Shown piece after piece: positions 1 to 46,173 of a DNA stretch of 49,166 nt; the stretch's first letter is position 1; each line of letters begins with the position of its first letter. Location: positions 1 through 49,166 of the IMG/VR virus record IMGVR_UViG_3300046490_000035; one strand, given 5' to 3'. The DNA comes from a virus. Taxonomy: Duplodnaviria > Caudoviricetes. The translations under genes and the position numbers were made by a program. The notes under the pieces are model-generated. The model was not told where the DNA came from, searched no databases, and saw nothing but the letters and a program-made list of their open reading frames with translations.

Positions 1-127
1 CCAAGGACAGGACGTTGCTCACTCGTCCGGGCACCACGTTCTGCGGCGCAGTCAAGGACGAGACCCTGCGACCCGAACTGCTGCCCTTCGTGTTCTCGGA
101 AGACCAGTCGTACGTGATCGAGTCGGG
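1..127 (+). repeat. Terminal direct repeat 1, identical to 47927..48053 (127 bp)
   Basis: Base-by-base identity up to the first mismatch at 128 (G) vs 48054 (T). Confidence 0.93.
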
Positions 128-2885
128 GGACAAGAACTTCCGCGTTCGAGCGTCGGACGGGGCGCTGCTCAAGGCGGAGTCGGTCGTGGCTCTTGGGGGG
201 TTCTCTGGGGCTGGAACGATCATGTGGAGATCGAATGACGTTGGAGTGACGTGGGACACGCCCACGCCCCCCATCACTTCAACTTACAAGGCAGTGTGCC
301 AGGCTGCCAATGGCAGACTTGTGGCAGTCGGGCCCATTGGCCTGGCGGCTCTGAGTGACGACGGGGGGACCACTTGGAGATATGTGCCGGCCGGAGGCGT
401 TACAGGACTGGGGGTGGCGTTCAATGGCCGCACCCTGTTGTCGGTCGGAGGTGCGATGGGCGCAATTTCTCACGACAACGGGGAGACTTGGCAAGGGTAC
501 GGATTCGACCCCAGCACGACGAGCTGGACTGCGTCCATGTCGGGCGTGGGCGTGTCCTGGGGAAACGGTCGATGGATCATGGTCGGGACTACCATCTCCG
601 GGGCAGTGCGTGCCAGATACGCCTACTCTTACGACGGCGAGAACTGGGGAGGCGCGTACGAGCTGGACGGCCTGGATGCGGCCTACGCCACGTCACAGCT
701 CAAATCTGTGTGCTTCGTGTCAGGGGCCTTCCTGTGTGTCGGTTACGCTGGGACGACGGGCATATACGCCACGATCGGCGTACTGGACGCCAACGCGAAG
801 TGGGGCACTTTAGGATCTAACTTGGTGATGGGCGTGGCGACAGACGGCGCTGGGCACGCCAAGTTGGTTGGCGGGTCCGTGGAGACAAACCCTCGCAGTC
901 GCGTGTGGTCTTACGACTCGGGGTCTGGGTTGGTATCCGCGCCAGAAGCGCTGGCCACGTCGTCACTCACAGACGACACACTCGAAGCCGTGTGTTTTCA
1001 TCGCGGGAGCTGGGTGGCTGTCGGAAAGAACAGCGTCGTGAGAGTTTTGACGGGGTCCGCGTGGTCTACCAGCGTTCAGGCGGGAGACCCCAGAACTTTC
1101 TGGACAGTGTGCTCCGGAGCGGGCGCCGAGGTTTTGGAGGTGTCCACTCCGTACACTGTGGGCGCGCAGCTCAACCACGCGCAGTCGGGCGACGTGCTCA
1201 CCCTGTTCAACAAGTACCTCCCGCCGAAGGAGCTGCGTCGGTACGGTCTCTTCGACTGGCGCTTGGAGGACTGGTACAAGGTGCCTCCCACGCGCAAGGT
1301 TACGGGCCTCGCCTTCACGGGCACTCCCGACCAGACGGGGGACTCGCTCCATCCGCCTAAGGCGTGGAAGTACGTGGTGACCTGGGAGGACGAGGAGACG
1401 GGCAGGGAGTCCCTGGCCTGCGCCGCGCTTGTTCCTGGCAGCTCTGGCAAGATCGTGCTGTATCCGGATAAGCCGATCGGCATTCAGTGGGACGCCATCT
1501 CCAAGGCCAGTAGGTACTACGTCTACCGTGGGCGCAACGACGAGTGGGGCTACGTCGGCTCTGTCAAGCAGCCCACGTCGATCTTGGGTACCGCGTTCGC
1601 CACCGTGTACTTCAACGACGACGGCCAGATTCCTGTCACGAGCGAGGACCCTCCAAGCTGGAGCAACCCGTTCCAGTCCGACCTGTCGTACCCGGTGTGT
1701 GGGTGCTACTTCGGCGACCGGTTGGTCGTGGGAGGCAGCCTCGTGCAGCCGCACACCGTCAAGGGCTCCGCTGTGGCGGACTACTACGACTTCGACGAGC
1801 ACTTCATCACGGACGCGGAGGATGCGTACGAGTTCACCCTGACTGCTCGACGGTACGAGGAGATCAAGTGGATCGTACCTCTGGAGGCCCTCATCGTAGG
1901 CACGTCCGAGGGCGAGTGGCTGCTGAGCGGGTCCGGGGAGGAGGCGCTTTCACCGGTCAGCGTTCACGCGCGAGAGCGGTCCACTCAAGGCAGCGGGGAA
2001 GTGCCGCCTGTTGTGGTGGGCGACGGGGTGCTCTATCTGCAACCGGGGCACCAGGGCGTGCGCGACTTCGCGTTCCAGGAGGCGTCGTCGCAGTGGGGAG
2101 GCCAGGACCGCACGGTTTACTCCGGTCACCTGTTCAAGGGGCACTCGATTGTCTCGTGGGCTTTCCAGCAGAAGCCCAACCCCACGGTCTGGGCGGTGCG
2201 GGACGACGGGGTCCTGCTCTCCCTCGCGTGCGTTCGAGAGCTGAACATGTGGGCGTGGGCTCGACACGACACGGACGGTGGACTCTTCGAGCGCGTGTGC
2301 GTCGTCCCCAACGGAGAGGCCGACAAGGTCTTCTTCGTCGTGAAGCGTGGGGCCCAGCGAAACATCGAGACGCTGGACGCCACTCCGAGCACGACCACCA
2401 GTCAACTTAGGTTGGACTGCAAGGTCACGCTGACCTACGGCTACCCACAGCCCACGATCACCGGACTACCTTTTCAGACGGGCACGGCGTACGTGATAGC
2501 AGACGGAGTCGCGCTCGGAGCGTTCACGGTCGTCGCGGGCGGCTCCATCTTCATCAACAACGGCAACTCCTACACCACGTTCACGGTCGGTCTGCTGTCT
2601 CCGGCGCAGTTCGGCACGCTCGACTTCCCCTCGGAGCACGGAAAGCGCAAGACGATCAGCGGTGTGGGCGTCGAGTTCACGTCGCTCGCGCCCTCCGACG
2701 TGGGGGTCCAGATATCGATAGGGGAGGCCCCAGGCACGGAGAGCTTGCGGTATCTCACCGACGCGGAGAACACCGTCCTGTCGGTGCCCGTGGACACCAG
2801 CACGAATCCTGGAGGCAGGTGCTCCGTGACTTTTTCAGGTCCGACGTTCCTTGAAATTCGCGGAGTGACTCGGGAGGTGTCGTGA
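3..2885 (+). CDS. Tail nozzle / tail tubular protein B, allele A (5'-truncated by the window; true start corresponds to ATG 47809), with Asp-box beta-propeller insert
   Basis: Nozzle-type motifs (LLPFVFSEDQSY, TPY..AQSGDV, YPVCGCYFGDRL, WAVRDDG, WAWARHDT); position between adaptor/tailspike and ejection genes; SxDxGxTW repeats in the insert. Confidence 0.85.
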   Translation, partial: KDRTLLTRPGTTFCGAVKDETLRPELLPFVFSEDQSYVIESGDKNFRVRASDGALLKAESVVALGGFSGAGTIMWRSNDVGVTWDTPTPPITSTYKAVCQAANGRLVAVGPIGLAALSDDGGTTWRYVPAGGVTGLGVAFNGRTLLSVGGAMGAISHDNGETWQGYGFDPSTTSWTASMSGVGVSWGNGRWIMVGTTISGAVRARYAYSYDGENWGGAYELDGLDAAYATSQLKSVCFVSGAFLCVGYAGTTGIYATIGVLDANAKWGTLGSNLVMGVATDGAGHAKLVGGSVETNPRSRVWSYDSGSGLVSAPEALATSSLTDDTLEAVCFHRGSWVAVGKNSVVRVLTGSAWSTSVQAGDPRTFWTVCSGAGAEVLEVSTPYTVGAQLNHAQSGDVLTLFNKYLPPKELRRYGLFDWRLEDWYKVPPTRKVTGLAFTGTPDQTGDSLHPPKAWKYVVTWEDEETGRESLACAALVPGSSGKIVLYPDKPIGIQWDAISKASRYYVYRGRNDEWGYVGSVKQPTSILGTAFATVYFNDDGQIPVTSEDPPSWSNPFQSDLSYPVCGCYFGDRLVVGGSLVQPHTVKGSAVADYYDFDEHFITDAEDAYEFTLTARRYEEIKWIVPLEALIVGTSEGEWLLSGSGEEALSPVSVHARERSTQGSGEVPPVVVGDGVLYLQPGHQGVRDFAFQEASSQWGGQDRTVYSGHLFKGHSIVSWAFQQKPNPTVWAVRDDGVLLSLACVRELNMWAWARHDTDGGLFERVCVVPNGEADKVFFVVKRGAQRNIETLDATPSTTTSQLRLDCKVTLTYGYPQPTITGLPFQTGTAYVIADGVALGAFTVVAGGSIFINNGNSYTTFTVGLLSPAQFGTLDFPSEHGKRKTISGVGVEFTSLAPSDVGVQISIGEAPGTESLRYLTDAENTVLSVPVDTSTNPGGRCSVTFSGPTFLEIRGVTREVS
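1126..1252 (+). repeat. Terminal direct repeat 2, identical to 49040..49166 (127 bp)
   Basis: Identity begins right after the mismatch 1125 (G) vs 49039 (A) and runs to the window end. Confidence 0.93.
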
Positions 2886-3328
2886 TCCAACTTCAAGCAC
2901 CCACCGAAGCGCACGTCTTGGAACTGGCCGCGAACATGCGGGACGGAGATCGACTGGAGTGCCTCGCTGCGTACTCCGATCCAGTCGACGCAATCTGGGA
3001 CTCTCTGGCTTCGGCAGCTCTGGCTTGGACCGGCGTGAACAGCAAAGGCCGGGTCGTTTTCATGGCAGGAGTGAGCCCTGAGGGACGTATTTTTCTTCTG
3101 TCCACGGGCGCCGTGGACTTGGAGCCCTTGGCCTACTGCCGGTCGGTGAGAGGGCTTCTTCGTGAGGGAACCAAGGCCCTGGGCAAGCTACTGTGCTACG
3201 TTGATTCTCGGTACGAGGTCTCGCTGCGATGGCTTCGTGGGATGGGTTTTATGATCGACGACAAGCACCCATTGCCAGTGGGCGTCAACGCGGTGCCGTT
3301 CTACCCGTGCACTTACGGAGGGGCGTGA
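2882..3328 (+). CDS. GNAT-fold internal virion protein A-like (DUF2833 / T7 gp13-like)
   Basis: LAANMRxxDxxEC N-terminus and SLRWLRGMGF C-terminal motif; canonical position after the nozzle; GTGA overlap. Confidence 0.7.
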   Translation: MIQLQAPTEAHVLELAANMRDGDRLECLAAYSDPVDAIWDSLASAALAWTGVNSKGRVVFMAGVSPEGRIFLLSTGAVDLEPLAYCRSVRGLLREGTKALGKLLCYVDSRYEVSLRWLRGMGFMIDDKHPLPVGVNAVPFYPCTYGGA

Positions 3329-3765
3329 TGGGTTTCATCAAAGGAGCGTTGGACGGATTCGCTCAGGAGAAGGCCCTGGCCGCTCAGTCGGGGCAGGCGT
3401 ACGTCAACTCGGCCCTCGCGGACAACGCGGCAGCCGACGCTTTGCAGCGTGGAGAGCAGAAGGTGGCCCAGGTGGCTGCCGAGGGCAACCAACGTGTGTC
3501 TGCGCAGAAGGTCGCCTACGCCAACGCAGGCGTGGACACCTCCAGTGGCACCCCCGCCAAGGTCATCTCGCAGACTGCTATGATCGCTCAACTTGAGGAA
3601 CTGACTCAACGAAATAACGCAGCGAGAGCAGCTTACGGGTACAAGGTTCAGGCGGTGCAGCTCAGGCAGCAAGCCGAGGATCTCAGCCAGGCAAGTCAGT
3701 CGGCTGGAGCTGATGCTGGGGTAGGGTTGGCGATTGGCGGGGCGACATCAGGATTCGGGAGCTGA
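3328..3765 (+). CDS. Small internal virion (ejection) protein
   Basis: Ala/Gln-rich helical sequence with AYANAGVDTSSGTP motif typical of T7 gp14-like proteins; TGATG coupling at 3328. Confidence 0.7.
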   Translation: MGFIKGALDGFAQEKALAAQSGQAYVNSALADNAAADALQRGEQKVAQVAAEGNQRVSAQKVAYANAGVDTSSGTPAKVISQTAMIAQLEELTQRNNAARAAYGYKVQAVQLRQQAEDLSQASQSAGADAGVGLAIGGATSGFGS

Positions 3766-3772
3766 GACACTT

Positions 3773-5662
3773 ATGGCCAACATACCAGCAGCTCCGACTT
3801 TCGCGCAGACGGACACCGAAGCTCTCCCCACGCCGTTCGACAGAGGGGACAAGACTCTCCCGGCGCAAGCTATCGCGCGTGCTGGTAAGATCGCGTCGGA
3901 GGTGGGGCAGTTCGCCATGAGCGCGCTACAAAAGTCCGTGGACCAGGCCGACGCCACGGCAGTTCAGGAGGCAGAGACCCAGTACAACCAGGAGATCCAG
4001 AGTCGCCTGTACGGCACCCCGCCCACCCAGGACTCCGAGTATTCGACTCGGCTGAACGCGGGTCTTCCCGTCTCGTCCTCCGAAGGGACTGAGGGGTTTC
4101 GAGCGCTCAAGGGCCACGCCGCGCTGTCGCAGTCGGCGGACGTGACGAAGTCGTTGGAGGATGCCCGCAAGAACATCGCGGGCGGTCTGACCAACGACCG
4201 TCAGCAGCAGCTCTTTCTGAGCCGCACGCAGTCCGAGATGCTCGGTGCGCAGCGGCAAGTGGAGCAGCACACCTTCGAGCAGGACCAGTACGTCAAGGAC
4301 GAGGCGTTCAAGACCAGCATACGCACCACCGCGCTCTCCGCCGTCAACGCCTACTCCGACCCTCTGGAGCGTCAGCGGCAGATCGAGACATCGCGTCCGT
4401 GGCTGGAGCTGGAGGCCGAGCGCCAGGGGCTTCGAGGTCGGGACGCCGAGGTCTTCGTCGAGAAGTATCAGGGCGCCGTGGCGGAGCAGGTGCTCCAACG
4501 CATCATGGCGGACGACGGGCGCTCGTCGGACGCGCTGGCATTCTTCGAGCAGAACCGTCAGAAGATCGGGCCTGACGCGCACAAGTACGAGGCGCAGCTC
4601 AAGAGGCTCTCGACCGTAGAGAACGCCACCGACGAGGTCAAACGCATCGAGCAGCAGTATTTCGACGACCCCGCCGCGCAAGAGAAGGCCGTGGCAGGAC
4701 TCTCCGGCGAGATGGGGGCGAAGGCCCTCGACATCTTCCGCGAGCGCCTCGGGGCCCGGGAGTCCGCGCAGCGTGCTGCGGACAACGCGACGCTGGGCAC
4801 GGTGGTGGACAACATCGAGGCGAAGAGAGTCCAGAACTCGGGGCAGCTTGAGCACGACCCCGCGTTCAACAAGCTGTCCGACGAGGGCAAGGGCAAGGCG
4901 CGTGAGCATCTGCGCCTGATGCAGAACTCGGTCCGCATCAACGACGCAGAGTGGCGCCGGCAGCAGCGCGAAGCGGACCTCGCCATGCTCCACGACTTCC
5001 AGGCTGTGCCCCTGGAGGACCGGGTCAAGCTGGACCTGAACCAGCGCTACGCGGGCGTGGCAAGCCCCAACGGAATGAACCTGATCAAGGCCGAGATGCT
5101 CAAGGCCAAGAAGGAGTTCGCCAAGGACGGCGGGGTCAAGGAGATGGAGTTCGATCGCCTGGTCCAGACCGAGGCCCAGGGGATCTTGCCCGACAAGCAG
5201 GATATGGACGAGTTCAAGGGAGTGCTGCGACGCCTGCGGTCGGACTGGATGGTCGCTCCGGGAAACACCGACAAGCCCCTCCCGCGCGAAGAGGCGATGA
5301 AGTGGATCACTCAGCAGCTCACTCGCAAGGACGTTCCGTGGGGCTTCGACAAGTTCGCCTACAGGCTCTCTCCCGAGGACAACAAGAAGTACGGCAACAC
5401 GTCGGAGCAGCCCTACTGGCAACAGCGGTTGGCTCAGCCCAATGAAGCGCCAGGGTCAGCTCCGCAGGATCCCGCGACCTCGGCTCCGAGCGTGCCGACG
5501 CGCAAGCAGGCAACAGCCACCTCGGAGATACCTACCGAAGTGCTGACTAGGATCAAGAGTGACTACGACGGCTGGAGGGCGCAGCACCCCAACAAGCCCC
5601 CGGTGTCAGACGCCATGCTTCTTCGGGCGTACAACGACGGACTTGCCAGCGGAGCGTGGTAG
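3773..5662 (+). CDS. Internal virion (ejection) protein, middle-sized
   Basis: ~629 aa helical protein between the small ejection protein and the giant protein; synteny with podophage ejectosome genes. Confidence 0.65.
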   Translation: MANIPAAPTFAQTDTEALPTPFDRGDKTLPAQAIARAGKIASEVGQFAMSALQKSVDQADATAVQEAETQYNQEIQSRLYGTPPTQDSEYSTRLNAGLPVSSSEGTEGFRALKGHAALSQSADVTKSLEDARKNIAGGLTNDRQQQLFLSRTQSEMLGAQRQVEQHTFEQDQYVKDEAFKTSIRTTALSAVNAYSDPLERQRQIETSRPWLELEAERQGLRGRDAEVFVEKYQGAVAEQVLQRIMADDGRSSDALAFFEQNRQKIGPDAHKYEAQLKRLSTVENATDEVKRIEQQYFDDPAAQEKAVAGLSGEMGAKALDIFRERLGARESAQRAADNATLGTVVDNIEAKRVQNSGQLEHDPAFNKLSDEGKGKAREHLRLMQNSVRINDAEWRRQQREADLAMLHDFQAVPLEDRVKLDLNQRYAGVASPNGMNLIKAEMLKAKKEFAKDGGVKEMEFDRLVQTEAQGILPDKQDMDEFKGVLRRLRSDWMVAPGNTDKPLPREEAMKWITQQLTRKDVPWGFDKFAYRLSPEDNKKYGNTSEQPYWQQRLAQPNEAPGSAPQDPATSAPSVPTRKQATATSEIPTEVLTRIKSDYDGWRAQHPNKPPVSDAMLLRAYNDGLASGAW

Positions 5663-8600
5663 ATGCCGACTGACTGGGACAAAATCGAAGGTGAGATCTC
5701 CGCCAGCGCGAACGGCACTCCGTCGCCGGAGCTGGACGTGGGGACCACGGCGCGCATTCCCGACGAGCCGGTCGTGCAGCCGTTGGAGTTCAAGCGCGAG
5801 CCGGCCGGGGCTGCTCAGCCTCCGTCTCCTCCCGTTGTGAACTGGGACGCGCTGGACCAGCAGCAGGAGCAGGACAACCAGACCAAGGACAACCGGCTCC
5901 GGTTCTTGTTCGAGCAGGGTCTCCAGAAGACCCCGGACAAGCACGCGAATATCAAGACCCTGGTGAACGAGACGGGGCTCAGTCCGGATCTGGTGGAGAG
6001 CCAGTACGAGGCCGTCAAGAACGCCGTGGCCGCCGCCAAGTTCAACCCGACGAAGTTCAGGGAGGAGAACCCCAAGCTCGCGCAGCTTCTCCTGGAGAAC
6101 CCGGACGCGGCCAAGCCAGTCCTTCATGATGAGGAAATCTCGTCGCTCACGAAGGTTCTGCGCGCATGGGATCGGTGGAGCACTGCCAACCCATGGGCTG
6201 CGAGACTCAGCGAGTTCTCCGTCAACCCCGCCACCATGCTGGGCTACCCGTTGGTGGGCGTGACGGCGGAGCTGCTGGACGCGCCTCCACCCAAGCAGAC
6301 AGCGCAGGTGGAGTCACCGTCCGGGAAGCTGACCGGCCTCGAAAGGATGTTCGGCAAGACCGAGCAGGTCCCCTCCGACCTTCCGGACACGGGGCCGAGC
6401 GCGGACGCGATGGCGGAGATGGCGCTTGCCACGGGCAAGGCCCCCCAGGCGACGACCAAGATCGTCACTCCTGGCATCTACCAGGACGCCTTCCAGAACA
6501 ACCAGAAGCAACTCGAATACTCGAAGCTGGGTTTCGAGCTGATGCTCAAGCGCGGACGGGCCGAGGCCAGCGGCTCCCCCGCCGACACGTGGGATCTGGA
6601 AAAGAAGATCCTCGCGGCCAAGCAGGACTTGGGGCAGCGGTACTACAACGCCAACTTCGTCGAGAAGATGCTGCTCGACACCGCCGAGCTGGCACCCTCG
6701 CAGTTGGAGGCGTTGAAGGGCGGCGGAGTTGGAGGAGCTGTCGGCGCTGGTGTGGCCGGAATCGGAGCGCTGGTAGCGACTCGCAGCCCTGGCGTGGCCA
6801 AGAAGGCCGCTCAGCTCGGCTACAAGTACGGATCGCGCATCGGCGCCTTCTCCACGACCTACCGGCTGGAGTCGGGTTCGGCTTACCTGGAGTACCTCGA
6901 CACCAAGACGGACTCCGGCAAGCTCATCGATGAGCCGGCAGCGCGAGGCGCGGCAGCGCTCTACGGAGTGGTGGCTGCGGCTGTCGAGGTGGACGCGCTC
7001 GGGCCGTTCTTCAGCATGTTCGGACCTCTCGGGGATGCTGTCGCCAAGGGCGAGGGCTCCGCGTTCATGAAGAACATGCTCCGGGACAGCTCGTTCCGGT
7101 CGGTCGCCACGGACATCGGCAAGCGCCTTCTGCACGGGGCCAACGCGGAGGCGTCGCAGGAGGCCATCCAGCAGGTGGCCCAGGACTTCTTCGGCTACGC
7201 GGCCAAGACGGTCACTGCCGGTGCTCCGCAGAAGGCCGACCTCATGAGCACGGCCGAGGCGTCGGCGGAGGCCTACTCCAAGGCGTTCACGGGCACCGGA
7301 GTCATGGGCGTCGGCGGCATCCCCTCCACGCTGCTCGGGCACGCCTACCAGCAGAGCGTATCGCGGGAGAGCGGGACGCTCGTGGCTGCCATGGCGAACC
7401 TGGCGGCAAACAGCCCCGGGGCGAAGTCGGCACCGAAGGTGGTGGCGGGACTGGTCGCTGACCAGACGGCGTCCGTGGGCGCCCCCGTCACGCACATGTA
7501 CGTGAAGGCCGACGCTTTCACGACGCTGTTCCAGTCGCAGAACGCGGACCCCTCCGAGGCCGCTCGCAAGCTCATGGGGGAGGACGGGCCCAAGCGCCTG
7601 CAAGAAGCGCAGGCTGGAACGAACGGTGGAGCGATCGCTGTGCCCGTGGAGGAGTACCTCGCGAAGTGGGGAGACAAGGGCGTCGCGGAGGCCCTGGCCG
7701 GTGACACCACCTCGCAGCCGCACCTCCCCACCATCAACATGCAGGTGGCGTTGGCCAAGGAGATCCAGGACTGGCGCAAGGCGCTGGTGAAGGAGTACGA
7801 CGACGAGAATGCTCCCGAGCCGAAGTCGGACGCGGAGAAGCGCCTCGTGGACGCTGTTCGCAAGCAGCTCGTGGCCACGGGCGTGGAGAACCCCGCTGAC
7901 GCTCGTCGGTCCGTGTCGATCATCCGAGCGTTCATCCGCACCCAGGCCTTCGAAGCCAGGGTCTCGGAGGACGCGCTGTTCAGCGCGTACGCGGCCTCAG
8001 TGGAGAAGACCCAGTCAATTGACGTTGAAGCGATGGCGCAGGACTCCGTGAAGACCGCCACGCAGTCGGACCAGGCACGGTGGGCGGGGCTGTCTCCCGA
8101 GGCCAAGGCCAAGGAGATGTTCATCGACCCGGGCACTGGCCTCCAGAACGCGCGTGCGTTCGAGATGCGAGCCCAAGATCCGTCCAAGCCCTTCGTGGCG
8201 GACATCTCGGTGGAGGGGACGAAGTACAAGAACAAGGAGGGGCACGACCAGGGCGACGCGCTCTACCAGGCCACGGCCCAGGCTCTCCACAGCGTGGCCC
8301 CCGACGTGGCCAAGGTGGGAGGCGACTTCAAGCTGGCGGTGAAGGACCAGTCCGAGCTGGACTCCATTCTGGCCCAGGGCAACGCCAACATGCTGGCGAA
8401 GGGTTACACGATCACCGGCAAGCTCGGCAAGACCTCGCAGGAGGCCCAGGCCGCGCACATCGCCTGGAGGGAGTCGGAGGAGGCTGCAAAGCGCCGCGCC
8501 CCTAGGGGCGAGAAGCCTTTGGGGGCCTCCGAGGGCCCGATTCAGGCCTCGCCCGTGCAGAACGTCACGGTCCCCGAGAGCCTGCGCGCCGCGTTCGACA

Positions 8601-11600
8601 AGATGCCCGACGAGCAGGCCCGGATGGCGGTCCACATGGACCCCTCCACGGGACTCCTGTCCCGGCAGGGCTTCTTCTTCCGGACGGAGCGCAAGTTCAA
8701 GGCGTCCCTGGACCTGAACAAGCTCAAGTCGATCAACAACCAGTTCGGAATGGCTGTCGGCGACCTCGTCATCTCGACGTTCGCCGAGGAGGCCAAGGCT
8801 CTCGGGGCCCCTGACCTCGACTTCGCTCACTTTTCGGGCGACGAGTTCGCGCTCCAGGCAGACGACAAGGGGCAGCTCCAGGCGTTCGTTGACACCCTCG
8901 GTACGGTGTGCGACAATGTGCGTGTAAAACTCCCGAGCGGGGAGTTCATCGACGGAATCACGTTTGGCTACGGGATCGGAGAGTCGTATGGCGAAGCCGA
9001 CAAGCTCATCGAAGCCAACAAGCAAGCAGGAGTCGAAGCCGAGCGCGCCGCCCGCGAAGCACGAGCTGTGGATCGGCAAAACCAAGGTGATGGAAGCGGG
9101 GGAGCAGGTGCCGAAGGAGGAGTTGCAGGCTCGAATTCGTGGGGCGGTGCGCAAGGTTCTCGGGTCGCAGCAGAAAAGCTCTACCAAGGCGAACGGGGCT
9201 TCGTAAAGAAGCTCTGGCAGGACGGCAAGAAGCTGTTCAAGATCGGACTGACGGAGGAGGCGGACCTGTCCACTTTCCTCCACGAGTCCGCGCACATCTT
9301 CCTCGACATGATGGGAGACTTCGCCGAGGCGCAGGGCGCTCCGGACCGCCTCGTCAGCGATTGGCAGACCACGCTCAAGTGGCTGGGCGTCACGGGTAAG
9401 GACGAGATCCGTCGCGAGCACCACGAGAAGTGGGCCCGCAGCTTCGAGACGTACCTCATGGAGGGCAAGGCCCCCAGCCTCTCCCTGGCCGGCGCGTTCC
9501 AGCGCTTCAAGCTCTGGCTCGGGGAAATCTACAAGGCCATCGCTCCGGAGCAGATCGACGACACCATCCGTGGCGTCTTCGACCGCATGCTCGCCACCGA
9601 TGCTGAGATCGAGCGCGCCCGTCTCGCCATGGGCTGGGACCAGAAGGTCTTCGCCACTGCGGAGGAGGCCGGGATGACCCCGCAGGCGTTCGCAGAGTAC
9701 CTGGAGGAGCGGGAGAAGGCCCTGTCCACGGCCACGCTCGCCGCCCAGCGACGCGCTGCCAAGGACAAGCTCCGGGTCACCGACACCTTCCTCAAGGAGG
9801 CACGCCGCAAGGCCAAGACGGACGCGGGGTCAGAGTACGACGCTCTCCCCGAGTCGCAGGCGTCGCGTTTTCTCGACCAGGGCGACCCCGGCACCAACGA
9901 GGCGCTCAAGTCGATCAAGGACGAGGCTGGCCGGCGAGTGGGGCTCATGCCCGAGTCGCTGGAGAACATGCCCAAGGTCCCGGAGGCGTGGAAGGACGAG
10001 GAGGGTCTCTACCCCGACGAGCTGGCCCGCATGCTGGGCGAGCCTGACGGGGAAACCCTCCTCTGGAAGATCACCAGCCTCAAGGACAAGGACACCTGGG
10101 TCAAGGATCGCACCGAGGAGCTGCTCAAGGAGCGCCACGGCGACACCATCGCCGACCGCGTGAAGTTGTCGGAGATCGCCAACCAAACGCTCCACAACCA
10201 GGGCACCAGCGCGTGGCTCGTGAAGGAGTGGAGGGCTCTGCGTCGCAAGGTGAAGGGAGACGACGGAGGCTCTGTCACCGAGGCCATCGGGCTTGCGGCG
10301 AAGGACATCGTGGAGGGCTCCACGGTCCGCAGCCTGAACGTGGACCGCATCCTCAACGCCGAGCGGGAGGCTGCTGGCGCCGCCGCCTTCGCCGCAGCCC
10401 AGGGCAACTACCGGTTGGCCCTGGTCGAGAAGCAAAGGCAGATCCTCAACCACTTCATGTTCAATTTCCTCAGCGAGGTGAGGGAGGAGCGCGAGCAGTT
10501 CAAGACTCTCACCACCAAGCTCAAGAGCCCTCGGATCCGCAGTGAGCTGGGCCGGGGGGACAAGGTCTTCCTGGACACGGCCGACACCATCCTGGAGGCG
10601 CTCCACATCAAGCCTCCGGAGACCGACCCCGTCGTGCTGGCTCGCCGGCCCTCGCTCGGCGAGGCCATGAAGGCGCTCACCGACGTGGGGGTCATCCCCT
10701 CGTTCGCTGGTGAGTGGATCGCCGAGGCGCTAACCAAACCGCCCGACGACTGGCGCGACCTCAAGGTCCGGGACATGCGGTTCATCCACAGCGCCCTCAC
10801 CCAGCTCTGGGCTGCCGCCAAGGCCGAGAACGAGGTCACTGCTGGGGAGGAGAAGGTCCGCATCGACGGGCTCCTCAAGACCATAGGCGAGGAGGCCGCA
10901 GTTCGCGCCACGCAACCCGATGTGGACGCTCCCGGCATAACGGCCAAGCTGCGCAGGGGCCTCCAGCAGGCGGACGCGCTGCTCGTGGACCCCGAGCAGC
11001 TCGTCAAGAGCCTGGGCGACACGGCGGGCCGCTTCTTCTGGGACGGCTACTTGAAGGGGCGCACCAACGAGGACCGGCTCGCTGCGAAGATCGAGGACTA
11101 CCTGACGGGCGTGTGGAAGGACATGCCCGACGAACTCAAGAAACGCCGGCTGGACCTCATCTCCGCCGCCGAGCTGGCCAAGCTGCCGTACCCCTCCGAC
11201 ATTCGCAGGGACTCCTCCAACCGCAACCGGACGTGGATGTGGATGGTGGCCCTGAACATGGGCAACGCCTCGAACATGGAGCGCCTGCTGGGCGGGTACA
11301 ACTGGGACAAGAAGACGGTGCGCGAATTCCTCGCGAAGAACATGACCTCCGCCGAGTGGGACTTCGTCGAGTCGATCTGGAAGCTGCTCGACAAGGAGCT
11401 GTACCCCGAGGTCGCGGCGCACTACGAGGACGTGAACGGAATCCGGCCGAAGAAGATCCCGGCGCAGCCGTTCACGCTGCCTGACGGTCGTGTCATCTCG
11501 GGCGGCTACTTCCCCGCGAAGTACGACCCCGTCGCCTCCCGCAAGACGGAGGGGATGCGGCAGGAAGACCTCTCGCGGATGTACCAGCAGAACGCGGGCG

Positions 11601-13051
11601 GCAACACGGTGGCTCGCAGCTTCACCGAGGCGCGCGCCAAGCACTACGACGACGTGATCAACCTCAACTGGAACGTCGTCTCGCAGCACCTGGCGCAGGT
11701 GAACCACTACGTCTCGTTCGACACCTTCGTCCGCGACGCCGGCCGCGTGCTGGGGTCGAACGAGATGGTCACCATCGTGAACGAGAAGCTGGGCGCTGCC
11801 TACTACCCCCAGCTCCAGAGCTGGCTGCGCACGGTGGCAAACCCGGGCTTCGACGGTCCTCCCGAGAACCTGACCTGGCTGTACCAAGGGCTCGGGGAGC
11901 TGCGCTCCCGGTTCGTCATGTCCTCGATCGGCTACTCGCTGTCGGTGGCTGCCGGCGACATGTTGAACCCGCTCGTCGCCATCGCCTCCGGCACCACCAA
12001 GAGCCGGTACGCGCTGCCCGGCCTGGGCCAGTCCCTCGCGCACTTCCCCACCGTGCGCAAGGACGCCTTGGCACTGTCCCCCGAGCTGGCGCACCGGGCC
12101 AGCCGTGGGCGGATGCGCATGCTCCAGATGACCAACAGCATCGGCGCTGGCGAGAGCGTGATGCACAGGGTGCAGCAGAGCGCGTGGATCTTCATGGAGA
12201 CCACGGACCTGCTCACGGCCACCGTCATCTGGAAGGGCGCGTTCAACCAGGGTCTTGGGGAGGGGAAGTCGAAGGAGGAGGCGGCGCGCTCCGCTGACGA
12301 GGTGGTGCGCTCGCAGCTCCCCTCTCACTCCACCGCCGAGCAGCCCGCTCTGCTCCGGGACAAGCGTGGGGTGGGAGCGCTCACCGCGTTCTACGGCTAC
12401 TTCTCCAAGCTGTACAACGTGAACCGTGGGATCCTCGAGCCCGTGCTCCAGCAGTTCCAGGACGAAGACGTGTCGGCCGGGCAGAAGGCGCTCTCAGCCG
12501 CGCACGCTGCCGGTCGTGCTCTGGCAGTCATGTTCGTCGCCAACGTGATGGGCGAGCTGGTGTCGGGGCGTGGTCCGGAGAAGGACGAGACGGTGGCGGA
12601 GTGGCTGATGCGCAAGACGCTGGCCGCTCCGTCCAGCTACCTCCCACTCGTCGGATCTGGAGGCGAGCTGGTGTCGAACATCATCGCCTCTGAGATCTTC
12701 CACGGCAAGGCTATCCCGCGTCAGTTCTCGTCCCGCTCCTCCCCTGCCATCGCAGCTCTGGATCGGGTCACGAGGGCCATCGTGAAGATGGCCAGCTCCA
12801 AGAAGGAGACCGACGACAAGCTCTGGGCGGCGCTGGAGGTCCTCGGCGTCATCACCAAGACGCCGCTGGGCTCCTCGCAGGTGGTGCGCACCGGGCGCGC
12901 TGTGACGAGCGGCAAGGCCGTCCAGGACATGACGCACGACCGGCCGTTCTCTGGGGCGGGGGCCCTGCTCTACGGGGCCAGGGACAAGCAATCCGGCAAC
13001 CTTGGCACGTTCACGCAAGACCTCGTTGACGGGAGAGTCCGATGGTGGTGA
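5663..13051 (+). CDS. Giant internal virion / DNA-transfer polyvalent protein (2462 aa): LPD22-like N-terminus, hydrophobic Gly/Ala segments, tandem GGDEF domains, HExxH metallopeptidase, helical C-terminal region
   Basis: Last and largest gene of the ejection cluster; DPxTGL...N..GH..GD...GGDF and DPxTGL...DLNKLKSINNQFG..GD...SGDEF...ADKLIEANK; TFLHESAH...HEKWARSFETYL.EG.AP; GGYFP.KYD in the C-terminal part. Confidence 0.85.
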   Translation: MPTDWDKIEGEISASANGTPSPELDVGTTARIPDEPVVQPLEFKREPAGAAQPPSPPVVNWDALDQQQEQDNQTKDNRLRFLFEQGLQKTPDKHANIKTLVNETGLSPDLVESQYEAVKNAVAAAKFNPTKFREENPKLAQLLLENPDAAKPVLHDEEISSLTKVLRAWDRWSTANPWAARLSEFSVNPATMLGYPLVGVTAELLDAPPPKQTAQVESPSGKLTGLERMFGKTEQVPSDLPDTGPSADAMAEMALATGKAPQATTKIVTPGIYQDAFQNNQKQLEYSKLGFELMLKRGRAEASGSPADTWDLEKKILAAKQDLGQRYYNANFVEKMLLDTAELAPSQLEALKGGGVGGAVGAGVAGIGALVATRSPGVAKKAAQLGYKYGSRIGAFSTTYRLESGSAYLEYLDTKTDSGKLIDEPAARGAAALYGVVAAAVEVDALGPFFSMFGPLGDAVAKGEGSAFMKNMLRDSSFRSVATDIGKRLLHGANAEASQEAIQQVAQDFFGYAAKTVTAGAPQKADLMSTAEASAEAYSKAFTGTGVMGVGGIPSTLLGHAYQQSVSRESGTLVAAMANLAANSPGAKSAPKVVAGLVADQTASVGAPVTHMYVKADAFTTLFQSQNADPSEAARKLMGEDGPKRLQEAQAGTNGGAIAVPVEEYLAKWGDKGVAEALAGDTTSQPHLPTINMQVALAKEIQDWRKALVKEYDDENAPEPKSDAEKRLVDAVRKQLVATGVENPADARRSVSIIRAFIRTQAFEARVSEDALFSAYAASVEKTQSIDVEAMAQDSVKTATQSDQARWAGLSPEAKAKEMFIDPGTGLQNARAFEMRAQDPSKPFVADISVEGTKYKNKEGHDQGDALYQATAQALHSVAPDVAKVGGDFKLAVKDQSELDSILAQGNANMLAKGYTITGKLGKTSQEAQAAHIAWRESEEAAKRRAPRGEKPLGASEGPIQASPVQNVTVPESLRAAFDKMPDEQARMAVHMDPSTGLLSRQGFFFRTERKFKASLDLNKLKSINNQFGMAVGDLVISTFAEEAKALGAPDLDFAHFSGDEFALQADDKGQLQAFVDTLGTVCDNVRVKLPSGEFIDGITFGYGIGESYGEADKLIEANKQAGVEAERAAREARAVDRQNQGDGSGGAGAEGGVAGSNSWGGAQGSRVAAEKLYQGERGFVKKLWQDGKKLFKIGLTEEADLSTFLHESAHIFLDMMGDFAEAQGAPDRLVSDWQTTLKWLGVTGKDEIRREHHEKWARSFETYLMEGKAPSLSLAGAFQRFKLWLGEIYKAIAPEQIDDTIRGVFDRMLATDAEIERARLAMGWDQKVFATAEEAGMTPQAFAEYLEEREKALSTATLAAQRRAAKDKLRVTDTFLKEARRKAKTDAGSEYDALPESQASRFLDQGDPGTNEALKSIKDEAGRRVGLMPESLENMPKVPEAWKDEEGLYPDELARMLGEPDGETLLWKITSLKDKDTWVKDRTEELLKERHGDTIADRVKLSEIANQTLHNQGTSAWLVKEWRALRRKVKGDDGGSVTEAIGLAAKDIVEGSTVRSLNVDRILNAEREAAGAAAFAAAQGNYRLALVEKQRQILNHFMFNFLSEVREEREQFKTLTTKLKSPRIRSELGRGDKVFLDTADTILEALHIKPPETDPVVLARRPSLGEAMKALTDVGVIPSFAGEWIAEALTKPPDDWRDLKVRDMRFIHSALTQLWAAAKAENEVTAGEEKVRIDGLLKTIGEEAAVRATQPDVDAPGITAKLRRGLQQADALLVDPEQLVKSLGDTAGRFFWDGYLKGRTNEDRLAAKIEDYLTGVWKDMPDELKKRRLDLISAAELAKLPYPSDIRRDSSNRNRTWMWMVALNMGNASNMERLLGGYNWDKKTVREFLAKNMTSAEWDFVESIWKLLDKELYPEVAAHYEDVNGIRPKKIPAQPFTLPDGRVISGGYFPAKYDPVASRKTEGMRQEDLSRMYQQNAGGNTVARSFTEARAKHYDDVINLNWNVVSQHLAQVNHYVSFDTFVRDAGRVLGSNEMVTIVNEKLGAAYYPQLQSWLRTVANPGFDGPPENLTWLYQGLGELRSRFVMSSIGYSLSVAAGDMLNPLVAIASGTTKSRYALPGLGQSLAHFPTVRKDALALSPELAHRASRGRMRMLQMTNSIGAGESVMHRVQQSAWIFMETTDLLTATVIWKGAFNQGLGEGKSKEEAARSADEVVRSQLPSHSTAEQPALLRDKRGVGALTAFYGYFSKLYNVNRGILEPVLQQFQDEDVSAGQKALSAAHAAGRALAVMFVANVMGELVSGRGPEKDETVAEWLMRKTLAAPSSYLPLVGSGGELVSNIIASEIFHGKAIPRQFSSRSSPAIAALDRVTRAIVKMASSKKETDDKLWAALEVLGVITKTPLGSSQVVRTGRAVTSGKAVQDMTHDRPFSGAGALLYGARDKQSGNLGTFTQDLVDGRVRWW

Positions 13052-30372: not shown

Positions 30373-30582
30373 TTAGATTCCTTCCGTGAGTTTTGACACC
30401 GTTGTGTCGAGCGCCTTGGCAAGGTCCAGCATGACCTGATACGACGGCGCCCGAGTACCTCGCTCCAGCAGGCTCACGTACATCGCGGTGAGCCCAACCA
30501 TCCCAGCCAGCGCGTTCTGTGACAGCTGCTTCTCGGTCCGCGCCTCGCGCAACCGCGACCCGAACTGGCACGGCTCCTTCAT
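30373..30582 (-). CDS. XRE/Cro-family HTH transcriptional regulator
   Basis: FGSRLREAR..KQLSQ..LA..VGLT..YVS.LERG.R.PS......LAKAL; RBS GGAG. Confidence 0.9.
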   Translation of the reverse strand: MKEPCQFGSRLREARTEKQLSQNALAGMVGLTAMYVSLLERGTRAPSYQVMLDLAKALDTTVSKLTEGI

Positions 30583-30593
30583 GTGGTCTCCCT

Positions 30594-30845
30594 TCACCTG
30601 CTGTAAAGACTCCGCATTTCCTCCCGCCACTCTGGCGATTGGTTGGTGAACGATTTCACCTCTCCGGGTGGGTGCTCCGCGTTCTCCACCGCCTGGTTGA
30701 TCGCCTTGCGCAGTCCCTCGTACACGTCGAAGTTGGGAAGGAGAAAGGCCCAGTAGCGATCGGCCGGCTGGTCTTCCTCCTTCGGAGCCATCCACTTGCC
30801 TTTCGCGGAGAACTTGGGTGTGCAAAGCCCCTTCATTTTTGCCAT
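30594..30845 (-). CDS. Hypothetical protein
   Basis: Part of the tightly packed early gene array. Confidence 0.55.
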   Translation of the reverse strand: MAKMKGLCTPKFSAKGKWMAPKEEDQPADRYWAFLLPNFDVYEGLRKAINQAVENAEHPPGEVKSFTNQSPEWREEMRSLYSR

Positions 30846-37961: not shown

Positions 37962-38666
37962 ATGAGCAAGAGTCCAAAACCAGAACCGATCGCGAAGCCG
38001 AGTAATCGGCGCGTGGTGTTTGCGCGGGTGTGGCTCGCCAACGGGCGCAACGGGGCAGAAGCCGCAAGGTCCGTGGGCGTCCCCACCAAATCAGCGACGC
38101 AAACCGCCGCGCGCTGGCTCCACGATCCGCAAGTCCTAGCCATCATCGCCGAAGAAGACGCACGTCTTGTCTCACAGTCACGTGCACTCACAGACAAGAT
38201 GGCGCTGACTGCGGAGAACCTGGATCGAGAAACAGCGCGCATCGCGCTTCGCGACCCCAAGGGCCTGGTTGGTCCTGGGGGCTCGCTGCTCTCGCCCGAT
38301 GAACTGCCAGAGGACCTGCGGCGCTCTATCCGGTCAGTGAAGGTCTCGACGGACAAGGACGGGACAGTGAACTACAGCTACAGCTTCGAACCCAAGACAG
38401 AGTCAATCACTACTGGTTACAGGCGACTTGGTTTACTCAAAGACAAGGTCGAGGTTGAGGTCAAGAGTCATGCAGAGCTTGTCATGGCTGCATTCACCAT
38501 GAGTGCCGAATCCCAGAGGGCAGGGTCGCAAGTCGTTGACGTGACTGATAGTGACGAGACAAATGACGTCATTGATCGTGGGGGTGGGGGGGTGGGGGGC
38601 GTGCCCAAACTGGCGGGGGCGAGCCGAAAAACCGAGGCCCCACCCCGGGAGCCATGGGAAAAGTAG
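37962..38666 (+). CDS. terS: Terminase small subunit
   Basis: F.R.WL.NG.N..EAAR..G....A...A.RWL..P.V HTH; L.LLKDKVEV; upstream of terL. Confidence 0.85.
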   Translation: MSKSPKPEPIAKPSNRRVVFARVWLANGRNGAEAARSVGVPTKSATQTAARWLHDPQVLAIIAEEDARLVSQSRALTDKMALTAENLDRETARIALRDPKGLVGPGGSLLSPDELPEDLRRSIRSVKVSTDKDGTVNYSYSFEPKTESITTGYRRLGLLKDKVEVEVKSHAELVMAAFTMSAESQRAGSQVVDVTDSDETNDVIDRGGGGVGGVPKLAGASRKTEAPPREPWEK

Positions 38667-38695
38667 GGAATTCAGACCACTTCACTGAGAGTCAC

Positions 38696-38866
38696 ATGCG
38701 CGGAACGGTCAGAGTGTGGCGTGGCAGGATCAGAGCACCAAGACCTTGGCGCACTCCACGCCCCAGGAACAAGTTCAAGCGTTGGTGGCGCACCATCAAG
38801 AAGAAGCCCTTCCTGGTGGACCCCACCACGATGGAACTGGTACCTTTCAGCAGAGGACAGACATGA
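38696..38866 (+). CDS. Small Arg/Trp-rich hypothetical protein
   Basis: ATGA overlap with the terL start; start uncertain. Confidence 0.35.
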   Translation: MRGTVRVWRGRIRAPRPWRTPRPRNKFKRWWRTIKKKPFLVDPTTMELVPFSRGQT

Positions 38867-40365
38867 CCAAAGCCCCAGCCTGGACGAAGGACGAACAGAA
38901 GGTCCTGAACCAGATCCAAAGCTGGTACAACGATCCAGTCACATTCGTGAAGCAAATGTTCGGCATCGTGCCGGACGACTGGCAGATCGACTACCTGAAC
39001 CACATCGCGCTGGGCCCGGAGCCTCGCACAGGGGCCTCCGCCTGCAAGGGCCCCGGCAAGACGTGCGCCGAGGCATGGGCCATCTGGTGGTTCGTGTACA
39101 CGCGGCCCGACGCCCAGGTGATTTGCACGTCCATCACCGCCGACAACCTCCGCGACAACCTGTGGAAGGAGCTGTCGCTCTGGTACTCCAAGGCCCCCGC
39201 CCTGCAACACGCCTTCGAGATCAGAGGGGAACGCATCGTCAGCCGCACCCGACCGAAGACGTGGTTCTGCGCGGCCCGGTCTTGGCCCCAGGACGCAGAC
39301 CAAACCCGTCAGGCCGACGCCCTCGCCGGATTCCACGGCAAGCACGTCATGTTCGTGCTCGACGAGATGGGCTCCTACCCGCTCGGCGTGCTGATGGCGG
39401 CTGAGGCGATCTTCTCAAACAAGGACGTGGATGAGGCAAAGCTCATCGCGGCTTGGAACCCCACCTCCACCCAGCACGCGGCCTACCACGTCTGCACCCG
39501 CGACCGGGGCCGGTGGAACATCATCAACATCTCTGGCGATCCTGAGGACCCCAAGCGCTCCCCGCGCATCTCGAAGGACTGGGCCCAGGGGCTCATCGAC
39601 CTGTTCGGCCGGGACAACGACTACGTCCGCGTCAACGTGCTCGGCCTCTTCCCTCTTGTGGGGGAGGACAAGCTCCTCGGACCGGACCAAGTGGCGGCGG
39701 CGCAGAAAAGGGACGTGCCTCTCAGAGCGCTCGACGGGGAGGCCAGCGTGTGGGGACTCGACGTGGCGCGCTTCGGGGGCGACAGAAGCGTCCTCCGCGA
39801 GCGCTGTGGGCCCGTGGCGATGCGTCCGCACGTCTGGCGGCAGTTGGACGGCCCCTCCCTCGCGCAGCGCGTGGTGAACGTCCTGGAGCACGCCAAGAGG
39901 TCTCCCGACTACCTCTTCATCGACGTGACTGGCGGAGCTGGAGCGTCGCCCTACGACCACCTCGTACTGATGGGCTGGGGTCACATCGCAATTCCTGTGG
40001 AATTTGGCGGGTCTGCGGACGACCCGAAGTTCTGCGACAAGCGGACGGAGATGTACTGGAGGATGGCTCACTGGCTGAAAAAGTACGGGTGCCTGCCAAA
40101 AGACAGCTCGGAGCTTGCCCAGGAGTTGACAGAACCTTCCTTCGGGTATCGGACCCGTGCTAAACTGACCAGGCTTGCGCTTGAAACCAAAGAGGAATTG
40201 CGCAGGCGAGGGGTGGCATCACCTGACGAAGCGGACGCACTGGCTCTGACGTTTTACCAAGAACGCACGCCGAAGCGGGAGTTCTTGAAGTCCATGAACG
40301 AGATCGCTCACAGGGAAGGTGGACTGATCCACACTCCTACCTGGGCGGAGAAGATGAGGAGCTGA
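38863..40365 (+). CDS. terL: Terminase large subunit
   Basis: PD.WQ, KGPGKT Walker A, FVLDE Walker B, NP, GLDVARFGGD nuclease, SPDEADALALTF. Confidence 0.95.
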   Translation: MTKAPAWTKDEQKVLNQIQSWYNDPVTFVKQMFGIVPDDWQIDYLNHIALGPEPRTGASACKGPGKTCAEAWAIWWFVYTRPDAQVICTSITADNLRDNLWKELSLWYSKAPALQHAFEIRGERIVSRTRPKTWFCAARSWPQDADQTRQADALAGFHGKHVMFVLDEMGSYPLGVLMAAEAIFSNKDVDEAKLIAAWNPTSTQHAAYHVCTRDRGRWNIINISGDPEDPKRSPRISKDWAQGLIDLFGRDNDYVRVNVLGLFPLVGEDKLLGPDQVAAAQKRDVPLRALDGEASVWGLDVARFGGDRSVLRERCGPVAMRPHVWRQLDGPSLAQRVVNVLEHAKRSPDYLFIDVTGGAGASPYDHLVLMGWGHIAIPVEFGGSADDPKFCDKRTEMYWRMAHWLKKYGCLPKDSSELAQELTEPSFGYRTRAKLTRLALETKEELRRRGVASPDEADALALTFYQERTPKREFLKSMNEIAHREGGLIHTPTWAEKMRS

Positions 40366-40369
40366 CCCA

Positions 40370-40756
40370 ATGGGCTTTGGCGGAGAAGGAGACCATAGTA
40401 AGATCTGGGCGAACGTGATAGCGAATTCGTCCACTCAGCAGGAGCTGGCGAGTATCGCAGCTCTCACGCCCCCTAGCGCTCCTGACATGATGGACGCGCA
40501 GGTCATCCAGGCACAGATCCAGAAGAAGCGTGAGCTGGCCGGCAACTCTGGAAGCGCGAGCACGTTCATCACCGGGCCTGCGGGTCTCAACGGGCCGTCA
40601 TCGTCCATCGCCAAGGACTTCATCCTGGCGAAGTTCCGCAACACCCAACCCGCGCCAGGGCAGACGGCGGACACCCAGAAGGCAGGCTCCGCTCTCGGAG
40701 GGCTGTTCTCCACCATCGACCAAATGCAGGTGGGCTTCTTCGGGAAGGCCAAGTGA
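40370..40756 (+). CDS. Small virion-associated protein upstream of the portal
   Basis: ST.ITGP.G motif and position typical of the podophage pre-portal gene. Confidence 0.6.
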   Translation: MGFGGEGDHSKIWANVIANSSTQQELASIAALTPPSAPDMMDAQVIQAQIQKKRELAGNSGSASTFITGPAGLNGPSSSIAKDFILAKFRNTQPAPGQTADTQKAGSALGGLFSTIDQMQVGFFGKAK

Positions 40757-42498: not shown

Positions 42499-42836
42499 CC
42501 GAGGAGGAGATCGTCAGGGAGGTGAGCGACTTCGAGGACCGTCAGCAGACCCAGCTCCACGACGACCTCATAGCCGTTCTGTCCACGGACCCTGGTCGTC
42601 GTCTGTGGTTGTGGATCACGACCGACGTGTGCTGTCTCAACAAGCGCATGCCGGTCGGGGAGCTGCTGGAGAGAATGGAGGGCCGGAGGGACGTGGCAGT
42701 TGACCTGTCGGAGATGCTGCATCCCTACCCGGACCTCGCTGTTGGCATTGAAACCATTCGCGTGCAGGAGGCCGCGCGAGGCGCGGAGTTCCAGGCGCGC
42801 GTTCGAAAGCTCGACGAGCTGAGGAGAAACCGATGA
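42495..42836 (+). CDS. Bbp19-like protein
   Basis: D...VLST..GRR.W....  EGRR.V motif; between portal and scaffold. Confidence 0.75.
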   Translation: MTEEEIVREVSDFEDRQQTQLHDDLIAVLSTDPGRRLWLWITTDVCCLNKRMPVGELLERMEGRRDVAVDLSEMLHPYPDLAVGIETIRVQEAARGAEFQARVRKLDELRRNR

Positions 42837-43543
42837 AGATCAAGTTCCTGATGGCCCCTGAGGGCGCTGCCGCAACGGGCGCCGCGACTCCTGCCCCGCC
42901 CGCCACAGCGACCGGCAGCGCTCCAGCCCCCGTGGCCCCTCCACCCGTGGCGCCCGTCGAGGGTGCTGCCAAGACGCCGCCTGCACCGGGCGCCACGGGA
43001 GATCTAATCGGCGGGGAGCCCGCCAAGGAGGCCCCGGTCGTGGACGCGAAGTCCTACGAGATCGCTCCTCCGGACGACCTCAAGGACTACGTCAAGGGCG
43101 TGGAGACCTACGCCGCGAAGGCGCTGGAACTCAAGATCTCTCCGGAGGCGTACAAGGGCCTCCTGGACCACCACTTCGCCCAGATGCGCGAGCAGCTCAA
43201 GGGCGTGAAGGAGGTGCAGGAAAAGAAGTTCAGCGAGACCGTGAACGGCTGGAAGGCCGAGGTCGCGAATGACCCTGAGATCGGAGGTGTGAAGCTGGCG
43301 GAGTCTTCGCAGCTTGCGACCAAGGGGGCTCTCGCGCTCGGGGGCCAGGCGCTCGTGGACGAGCTGCGGAAGACGGGGTTGTCCAACTGGCCTCCGCTCG
43401 TGCGAGCGATGCGGAACGCCGGCATGAAGATCTCCGACGACGCCATCGGAGGCAGCGGCAACTCCGGCGTGAAGCCCGACCCGACCGAGGACGAAGTCGC
43501 GGCGGAGCGGGATCGCAAGATGTTCCCCTCTCACTATAAGTAA
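42833..43543 (+). CDS. Capsid scaffolding protein
   Basis: Pro/Ala-rich N-terminus, W......DPEIGG, TGL.N.P...R.....G..ISDD. Confidence 0.85.
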   Translation: MKIKFLMAPEGAAATGAATPAPPATATGSAPAPVAPPPVAPVEGAAKTPPAPGATGDLIGGEPAKEAPVVDAKSYEIAPPDDLKDYVKGVETYAAKALELKISPEAYKGLLDHHFAQMREQLKGVKEVQEKKFSETVNGWKAEVANDPEIGGVKLAESSQLATKGALALGGQALVDELRKTGLSNWPPLVRAMRNAGMKISDDAIGGSGNSGVKPDPTEDEVAAERDRKMFPSHYK

Positions 43544-43552
43544 GGAGAAGCA

Positions 43553-44545: not shown

Positions 44546-44579
44546 TCGCAGGCCAACTCTTTCGAAGGGAGACAAGACA

Positions 44580-45005: not shown

Positions 45006-45017
45006 CCTGCTGACCAC

Positions 45018-45049
45018 GGGGAGGGCGCCAGCAAGGGCCCTCCCCTTTT
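45018..45049 (+). terminator. Intrinsic terminator after the capsid/cement genes
   Basis: GGGAGGGC-loop-GCCCTCCC followed by CTTTT. Confidence 0.7.
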
Positions 45050-45064
45050 ACTAGGAGAAAACAC

Positions 45065-45481: not shown

Positions 45482-45484
45482 GCC

Positions 45485-46165: not shown

Positions 46166-46173
46166 GAGGGCAC

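Follow-up and report, generated by a model that had tools for sequence, protein, structure and literature searches.

The window analysed here is a viral stretch of 49,166 nucleotides (Duplodnaviria; Caudoviricetes; positions 1 to 49,166 of IMG/VR record IMGVR_UViG_3300046490_000035) belonging to a podophage. Near its start lies a 2462-aa open reading frame (ORF) encoding a large ejection-type protein, hereafter the carrier, within which an earlier note, made from the sequence alone, had placed two consecutive GGDEF-like units. Both units were found there, with the motifs that had been quoted for them: DPGTG from D822 (8126), DPSTG at D993 and SGDEF at 8834..8848. The features on which the argument rests are as follows.

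5663..13051, + strand: carrier, ejection (IVP-D/gp16-type) polyvalent protein of 2462 aa, assigned from Bbp10 homology, PHROG 9880 and gene order
8096..8530, + strand: GGDEF unit 1, about residues 812-956, predicted acceptor half, assigned from unit-2 profile homology and residue pattern
8489..8518, + strand: G-x-R-A-x-R-G-x-x-P tail of unit 1, conserved (R948 87%, P952 82%)
8585..9037, + strand: GGDEF unit 2, about residues 975-1125, predicted donor half, assigned from PF00990, fold and residue pattern

The two units are not equally recognizable as GGDEF domains. Unit 2 (residues 991-1130) matches PF00990 (E 5.1e-9, 36.5 bits versus a cut-off of 23.8), as do 42 of 48 family rows at E<=0.01, and also matches DgcR by sequence; its TIGR00254 score of 27.3 is under that model's cut-off of 37.4. 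Unit 1 of the window protein, taken alone, has no Pfam or NCBIfam match, so the earlier expectation of a GGDEF profile match holds directly for unit 2 and for unit 1 only by way of its homology to unit 2 (profile against profile, E 5e-22, probability 99.4%). In some homologues (P0018, P0019 and P0031) unit 1 gives weak PF00990 matches. By these sequence comparisons, unit 1 is a diverged duplicate of unit 2. Structure prediction, which the note had proposed as a check, bore the fold out: an AF2 model of the 329-aa pair built from a 48-row alignment has a mean predicted local distance difference test score (pLDDT) of 96.9 and a predicted template modelling score of 0.90 (a single-sequence fold, pLDDT 49, was set aside). 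The best fold matches of the model are solved diguanylate cyclases, which cover unit 2 with Z about 17 and a root-mean-square deviation (rmsd) of 1.7-2.0 Å over about 140 residues; unit 2 thus combines a profile score above cut-off with the palm fold of a GGDEF domain. Human soluble adenylyl cyclase aligned weakly across both units (Z 9.2, rmsd 5.8) and was not counted as support.

For the residue comparison, relatives were collected by a region search, which gave 44 proteins, and by searching 1.84 billion representatives with a profile, which gave 248 matches at E<=1e-30; the best 150 of these 248, all among 50%-identity clusters, were used. The set comprised 174 proteins, 170 with both units. 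P0039 was set aside from the tandem counts, which refer to 169 relatives and the window's own protein (n=170); this 1628-aa protein has two separate GGDEF units, both seemingly complete (the first seen in part), and is possibly an independent duplication. Residues were mapped to DgcR numbering by counting on the DgcR sequence alignment, with numbers from PMC8041772. According to that work, D174, E217 and E218 of DgcR are metal ligands, N182 and D191 read the guanine, K289 contacts the gamma-phosphate and K179 acts on the other substrate, and D183-Y286 and H187-D282 are modelled cross-dimer pairs in the competent dimer (PMC8041772). The fourth-position Glu of the GGDEF motif has been proposed as the base for the opposite substrate (PMC6456294).

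These residues are divided between the two phage units. Unit 2 retains the equivalents of D174 (170 tandems), E217 (168), E218 (167), D282 as D/E (167), K289 (155) and N182 (144), and is poor in those of H187 (11), D183 (52) and K179 (K1022 in the window; 105). Unit 1 retains the equivalents of K179 (164), N182 (165), H187 (167) and D183 (130), with Asp in 94 and Asn in 69 at the position of D191, and has lost those of D174 (present in only 10) and D282 (D/E in 6); two acids in its hairpin were seen in none of the 170. The window protein follows this pattern, with K854, N857, H861 and D865 retained in unit 1, S849 at the metal Asp site and the hairpin cut to GGDF, and with D1017, D1060, E1061, N1025, D1034, D1113 and K1120 retained in unit 2. 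The whole set for one centre is present in 157/170. A canonical diguanylate cyclase has both residue sets in each protomer, as do the six single-domain phage relatives (at each site, 5 or 6 of the 6) and the host cyclases used as controls (26-29 of 30 rows, three of the 30 being translated out of frame, and host rows being misaligned after D282). Since the metal and cross-dimer residues are divided between the units, just one of the two symmetry-related centres has all its residues. The pair is therefore predicted to be not two cyclases but a single catalytic centre, and the earlier view of two cyclase domains finds no support, as the metal ligands are missing from unit 1 in practically every relative. 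The note's description of the pair as sensor-less does apply: there is no sensor domain and no RxxD inhibition site. Ahead of the hairpin, unit 2 and the single-domain relatives have His, and unit 1 has Lys/Arg (161/170), which could take the place of the lost metal. The tail of unit 1, a candidate phosphate-binding or clamping element, occurs in single-domain phage relatives too.

The DNA for the end of unit 2 also belongs to a second gene.

8988..9206, + strand (+1 frame): nested gene of 72 aa, ATG with upstream GGAG, TAA stop, open in 32/32 loci

Of 34 loci, 32 were usable, the truncated L015 and L102 (Ns) having been removed. All 32 have an open +1 frame, against a background mean of 0.27 for a stretch of equal length, and 9/32 have one at the equivalent place in unit 1. 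The ATG stands at the same position in 26/32 (the codon ending that it requires is used 18% elsewhere), and the stop is TAG/TAA in 31/32 versus a 19% background; because the loci are related, these statistics are not independent trials. Main-frame GC content at third codon positions falls in the overlap from 0.80-0.98 to 0.60-0.67, and similarity z>4 was reached by 44/496 pairs in the +1 frame, 10 in frame 0 and 9 in frame +2. A hydrophobic hairpin-plus-helix pattern is common to about half of the nested products (16 were aligned), and the rest diverge. The nested protein has no Pfam family, no Atlas match and no homologue in called-protein databases, and the single-domain locus L012 has no such ORF. 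Given its position, and since a constitutive enzyme would have to be kept silent while late genes are expressed, the nested protein is a candidate antidote.

The carrier itself is a T7 gp16-type ejection protein by homology, in line with what the note had claimed. Its residues 1181-2253 match Bbp10 of Bordetella phage BPP-1 (tblastn, E 6e-63), Carin1 is also matched, and Bbp10 is entered as a T7 IVP-D/gp16 homologue in Table 2 of PMC4819975. With this homology and its final position in the internal virion protein block after the nozzle, it belongs to the podophage IVP-D/gp16 group (epsilon15/BPP-1). IVP-D-type proteins are described as housing domains bound for the cytoplasm (PMC4819975), and the carrier with its GGDEF pair is likely injected into the host.

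The tandem is retained across divergent proteins. Tandem sequences are mostly 25-50% identical to each other with the catalytic positions nearly invariant, and 140 long proteins among the 170 have the window's C-terminal scaffold. The tandem also occurs in four InPase/DarA/ParB-type proteins and in three N4-like virion RNA polymerases (P0029, P0033 and P0168; 3868-4380 aa), where it lies upstream of the polymerase domains; short members are mostly fragment-like. From this distribution, the pair is a unit that has been transferred intact among unrelated virion proteins. An inorganic pyrophosphatase domain is fused to the tandem in P0077, P0090 and P0092, and rows 34, 36, 40 and 42 of alignment A4 match Toprim_2. 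A quick tree of 102 rows, with 35 tandems, 6 singles and 26 host domains as input (three mistranslated host rows and one degenerate one excluded), separated unit 1, unit 2 and the host domains, each group lying wholly to one side of a branch (Shimodaira-Hasegawa-like approximate likelihood ratio test 98), with the single-domain relatives between these groups, a topology consistent with one old duplication having made both units. Carrier homology was used to retrieve 78 viral loci; the tandem is present in 14 of them and a single unit in one. None of 5487 candidates was a tandem relative of 184-588 aa, which does not thereby exclude free-standing forms; no tandem was found on plasmids, none at >=80% coverage in 50,697 cultured phage records, and none in the 40 listed cultured carrier homologues, all of which except Carin1 align only from residue 1160 onward.

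The hosts are probably Myxococcota. Five of seven genome pattern matches are Myxococcota records, the other two being contigs under 2 kb. Besides the centre genome, matches were found in 6/400 sampled Myxococcota genomes (one of them among the earlier pattern matches) and in 0/400 from the phylum of the Sideroxydans record, sampled as a control. A prophage-like stretch with a portal and the tandem lies at about 2297000-2312000 of a 9.4-Mb contig (G233:C1; L148 and L149).

We propose that the duplicated pair, with its complementary losses, is an injected single-centre nucleotidyl transferase whose units close on each other in one chain, a reading that we consider reasonably probable. Unit 2 would bind Mg-GTP as the donor through D1017, D1060, E1061 and K1120, and unit 1 would bind a second guanine nucleotide as the acceptor through N857 and D865, lend K854 to the donor alpha-phosphate and pair its H861 with D1113 of unit 2, such that each cycle would make one 3'-5' bond and yield pppGpG. 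GTP + GTP is a first guess, based on the Asp at both base-reading sites (D865 and D1034). Cyclic di-GMP (c-di-GMP), the product on which the earlier note had built, is one candidate and not a given; its formation by release and flipped re-binding, by analogy with single-site cyclases, is conceivable but falls short of probable. Such ring closure, with rotation of a linear intermediate at one site, is described for DncV and cGAS (PMC6456294). That the product is instead linear, longer or an otherwise unusual guanine nucleotide is a more tentative suggestion; Cas10, with the same layout, makes linear and cyclic oligomers, and SAM-AMP after a change in the acceptor site (PMC11734703, PMC13294483). 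Within the family the product may vary, to judge from the missing stacking Arg and from the Asn variants. Fusion would remove the need for sensor-driven dimerisation, and therefore the few injected copies could act at once, with the nested 72-aa protein keeping the enzyme off during virion building. In a myxobacterial host, raised c-di-GMP would reduce pilA transcription and type IV pili, as reported for M. xanthus (PMC4686200). A bolder form of the proposal, which we hold to be rather doubtful, is a Cas10-like single-centre enzyme, independently derived from a GGDEF domain, that is injected, releases a nucleotide foreign to diguanylate cyclases and is silenced in the producer cell by an antidote inside its own gene; its products could be linear pppGpG, oligo-G, cyclic tri-guanylate or GMP on a non-NTP acceptor (some Cas10 use SAM in this way), and would be directed against myxobacterial signalling or immunity.

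Several points weigh against the single-centre proposal. The 170 sequences were gathered with a tandem profile, which inflates the conservation figures. The cross-dimer base-stacking Arg (R147 in DgcR) has been lost from both units (kept in 23 and 27/170), which makes guanine specificity less certain, and the window protein itself has K858 where most relatives have Asp and R936 for Lys. The face-to-face geometry of the two units is inferred, and the coupling analysis that bears on it is shallow (effective number of sequences 155 for 298 columns), with most inter-unit pairs noise-like. The top inter-unit pair, 865-1058 (fourth overall), failed the independent-pairs (kinship) test with p 0.5 and too few pairs. 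Host assignment is indirect, portal identity being 35-40% in Myxococcota versus 34-36% in the control phylum. The second-ranked inter-unit coupling, 858-1116, with 858-1117 also in the list, does match a contact, D183-Y286, that was modelled in the competent dimer of DgcR (PMC8041772). Covariation at 865-1058 (D/H 68, N/S 60, D/S 20, N/H 8) was dropped as a signal, being inseparable from kinship. Two subtypes, D/H and N/S, are seen at residues 865 (8255-8257) and 1058 (8834-8836), the window having the rarer D/S, and they may differ in acceptor base.

Alternatively, the single centre could run in reverse or merely bind, opening one bond of, or sequestering, host c-di-GMP or 3'3'-cGAMP and so countering nucleotide-based immunity or signalling. 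Ring opening requires just one centre, and unit 1 has no triphosphate-Mg ligands, yet both base pockets remain; an ejection protein that blocks CBASS (cyclic-oligonucleotide-based antiphage signalling) is on record (bioRxiv 2025.07.23.666291), and frustrated GGDEF domains are able to hydrolyse GTP to GMP (PMC7825114). We nevertheless consider this alternative unlikely, as the gamma-phosphate Lys that unit 2 keeps in 155/170 fits a donor that is a triphosphate, the near-invariant metal triad would be superfluous in a pure sponge, and the inorganic pyrophosphatase in the same chain as the tandem in three relatives suits a synthesis that releases pyrophosphate, although that domain is common in such proteins. 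Ejection proteins are oligomers, and this would suit an ordinary c-di-GMP cyclase in which the unit 2 domains of neighbouring subunits pair symmetrically and unit 1 is a pseudo-domain that regulates or scaffolds; the complete cis set is present in unit 2, as is, in 105/170, the equivalent of K1022. Against such symmetric pairing, unit 2 has lost the His and Asp (H187 and D183 in DgcR) that host cyclases, phage singles and unit 1 all retain, and the single chain is modelled as a confident two-domain unit, so that we regard an ordinary cyclase as quite unlikely. That the pair rides in the ejection protein as a passenger, dead or structural, is very improbable: neither unit has a full canonical motif and unit 2 misses the TIGR00254 cut-off, but catalytic positions stay nearly invariant at mostly 25-50% identity, the module is retained on transfer between scaffolds, and cultured carrier homologues without it indicate that ejection does not need it. 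A Hypr-type (cGAMP synthase) reading was rejected, there being no Ser/Thr at the base-reading site (S348 in GacA), which is D865 and D1034 in the window and D/N in the family, with Thr in 2/170 at unit 2.

The remaining features of the carrier and its surroundings are these.

15..2885, + strand: tail nozzle gene, PHROG match
2882..3328, 3229..3765 and 3734..5662, + strand: internal virion protein genes, PHROG match (PHROG 376, 308, 418 and 1044 for the upstream set, nozzle included)
5915..6115, + strand: LPD22-like stretch, residues 85-151 (E 7.5e-4, 20.1 versus a Pfam cut-off of 28.6 bits)
9281..9450, + strand: HExxH...E zincin-like motif (H1207, E1208, H1211, E1255 and E1262), directly behind the GGDEF module

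The carrier is the last gene of a block made up of the nozzle, two internal virion proteins, a 642-aa protein and the carrier. The 49-kb record looks complete, with genes for a portal, GP7-type capsid, nozzle, PolA, SNF2 helicase and ligase; tail and ejection genes (15-13051) stand at the start of the window and head genes (37962-47805) at its end, and the record is thus circularly permuted. An HTH regulator gene lies at 30373-30825 (-), and no tRNA genes were found in the window. The GGDEF pair and HExxH motif here, with ART-PolyVal, PBECR5 and LPD22 in relatives, identify the carrier as a polyvalent protein; LPD22 passes the Pfam cut-off in relatives and stays below it in the window protein. 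The zincin-like residues are invariant in alignment A1, HExxH is unbroken in 139/140 homologues matching that part, and the region has no Pfam match. The motif marks a candidate peptidase that may release the module, a role proposed for such peptidases in polyvalent proteins (PMC5512222, section 8). Between the tandem and the HExxH domain is a slot of 43 to 2065 residues across homologues, holding ART-PolyVal, PBECR5 and other cargo in relatives and minimal in the window (about 9040-9170).

In the polyvalent proteins of PMC5512222, too, a large virion protein carries a GGDEF domain as cargo next to LPD22, zincin, ART and PBECR domains, and the role proposed there, host interference, is the one proposed here; the main text of that paper mentions GGDEF four times, without a tandem, split centre or nested gene. 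DgcR, PleD and the Hypr enzyme GacA have the same fold (Z about 17) and the same inventory of competent-dimer residues but are symmetric, sensor-gated homodimers with two centres, often with an RxxD site (PMC8041772, PMC6456294), whereas the phage pair is one chain with one predicted centre, no sensor and no RxxD. The phage pair further differs from canonical cyclases in the His ahead of its SGDEF/HGDEY hairpin; like Hypr enzymes it lacks the stacking Arg, and unlike them it has Asp/Asn rather than Ser/Thr at the base-reading site. Palm1 and Palm2 of Cas10 likewise place two palms in one chain around a pseudosymmetric pocket, with donor and acceptor sites and catalytic acids on the second palm only (PMC11734703, PMC13294483). 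The phage pair differs in its separate origin by GGDEF duplication, its lack of a CRISPR complex and its likely use of guanine rather than adenine; it has no Pfam match to Cas10, and no Cas10 chain is among the fold matches listed, which GGDEF cyclases fill, so that the resemblance is an analogy of working only. mCpol/OptS of Panoptes (PMC12657218) is also a constitutive palm-fold dinucleotide synthase in phage conflict, but is host-encoded and homo-oligomeric, makes adenine products and matches the fold much more weakly (Z 9.0) than GGDEF cyclases do. The stand-alone GGDEF genes of Bordetella phage CN1 and Bacillus phages G and SP-15 share the phage-encoded fold, but their products are small (152-254 aa), single-domain and outside an ejection protein.

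GGDEF domains in injected phage polyvalent proteins were already predicted by Iyer et al. 2017 (PMC5512222), and an injected GGDEF as such is no new idea; PMC7824862 contains GGDEF only in a reference. In the papers searched we found no report of a split-centre or single-centre tandem phage GGDEF; the supplementary architecture lists of PMC5512222 may contain a tandem. The family is large (248 matches at E<=1e-30), and its annotation reveals a single weak GGDEF at best and misses the nested gene. PMC8041772 gives the catalytically competent GGDEF dimer as a model, and it disagrees with PMC6456294 over the general base. If our proposal is correct, the pair would be a naturally occurring GGDEF enzyme with one chain and one centre, and its locked, asymmetric arrangement would offer a direct route to a structure of the competent dimer and a test of stepwise bond formation. 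It would also mean that phages deliver a ready-made nucleotide synthase to the host ahead of gene expression.

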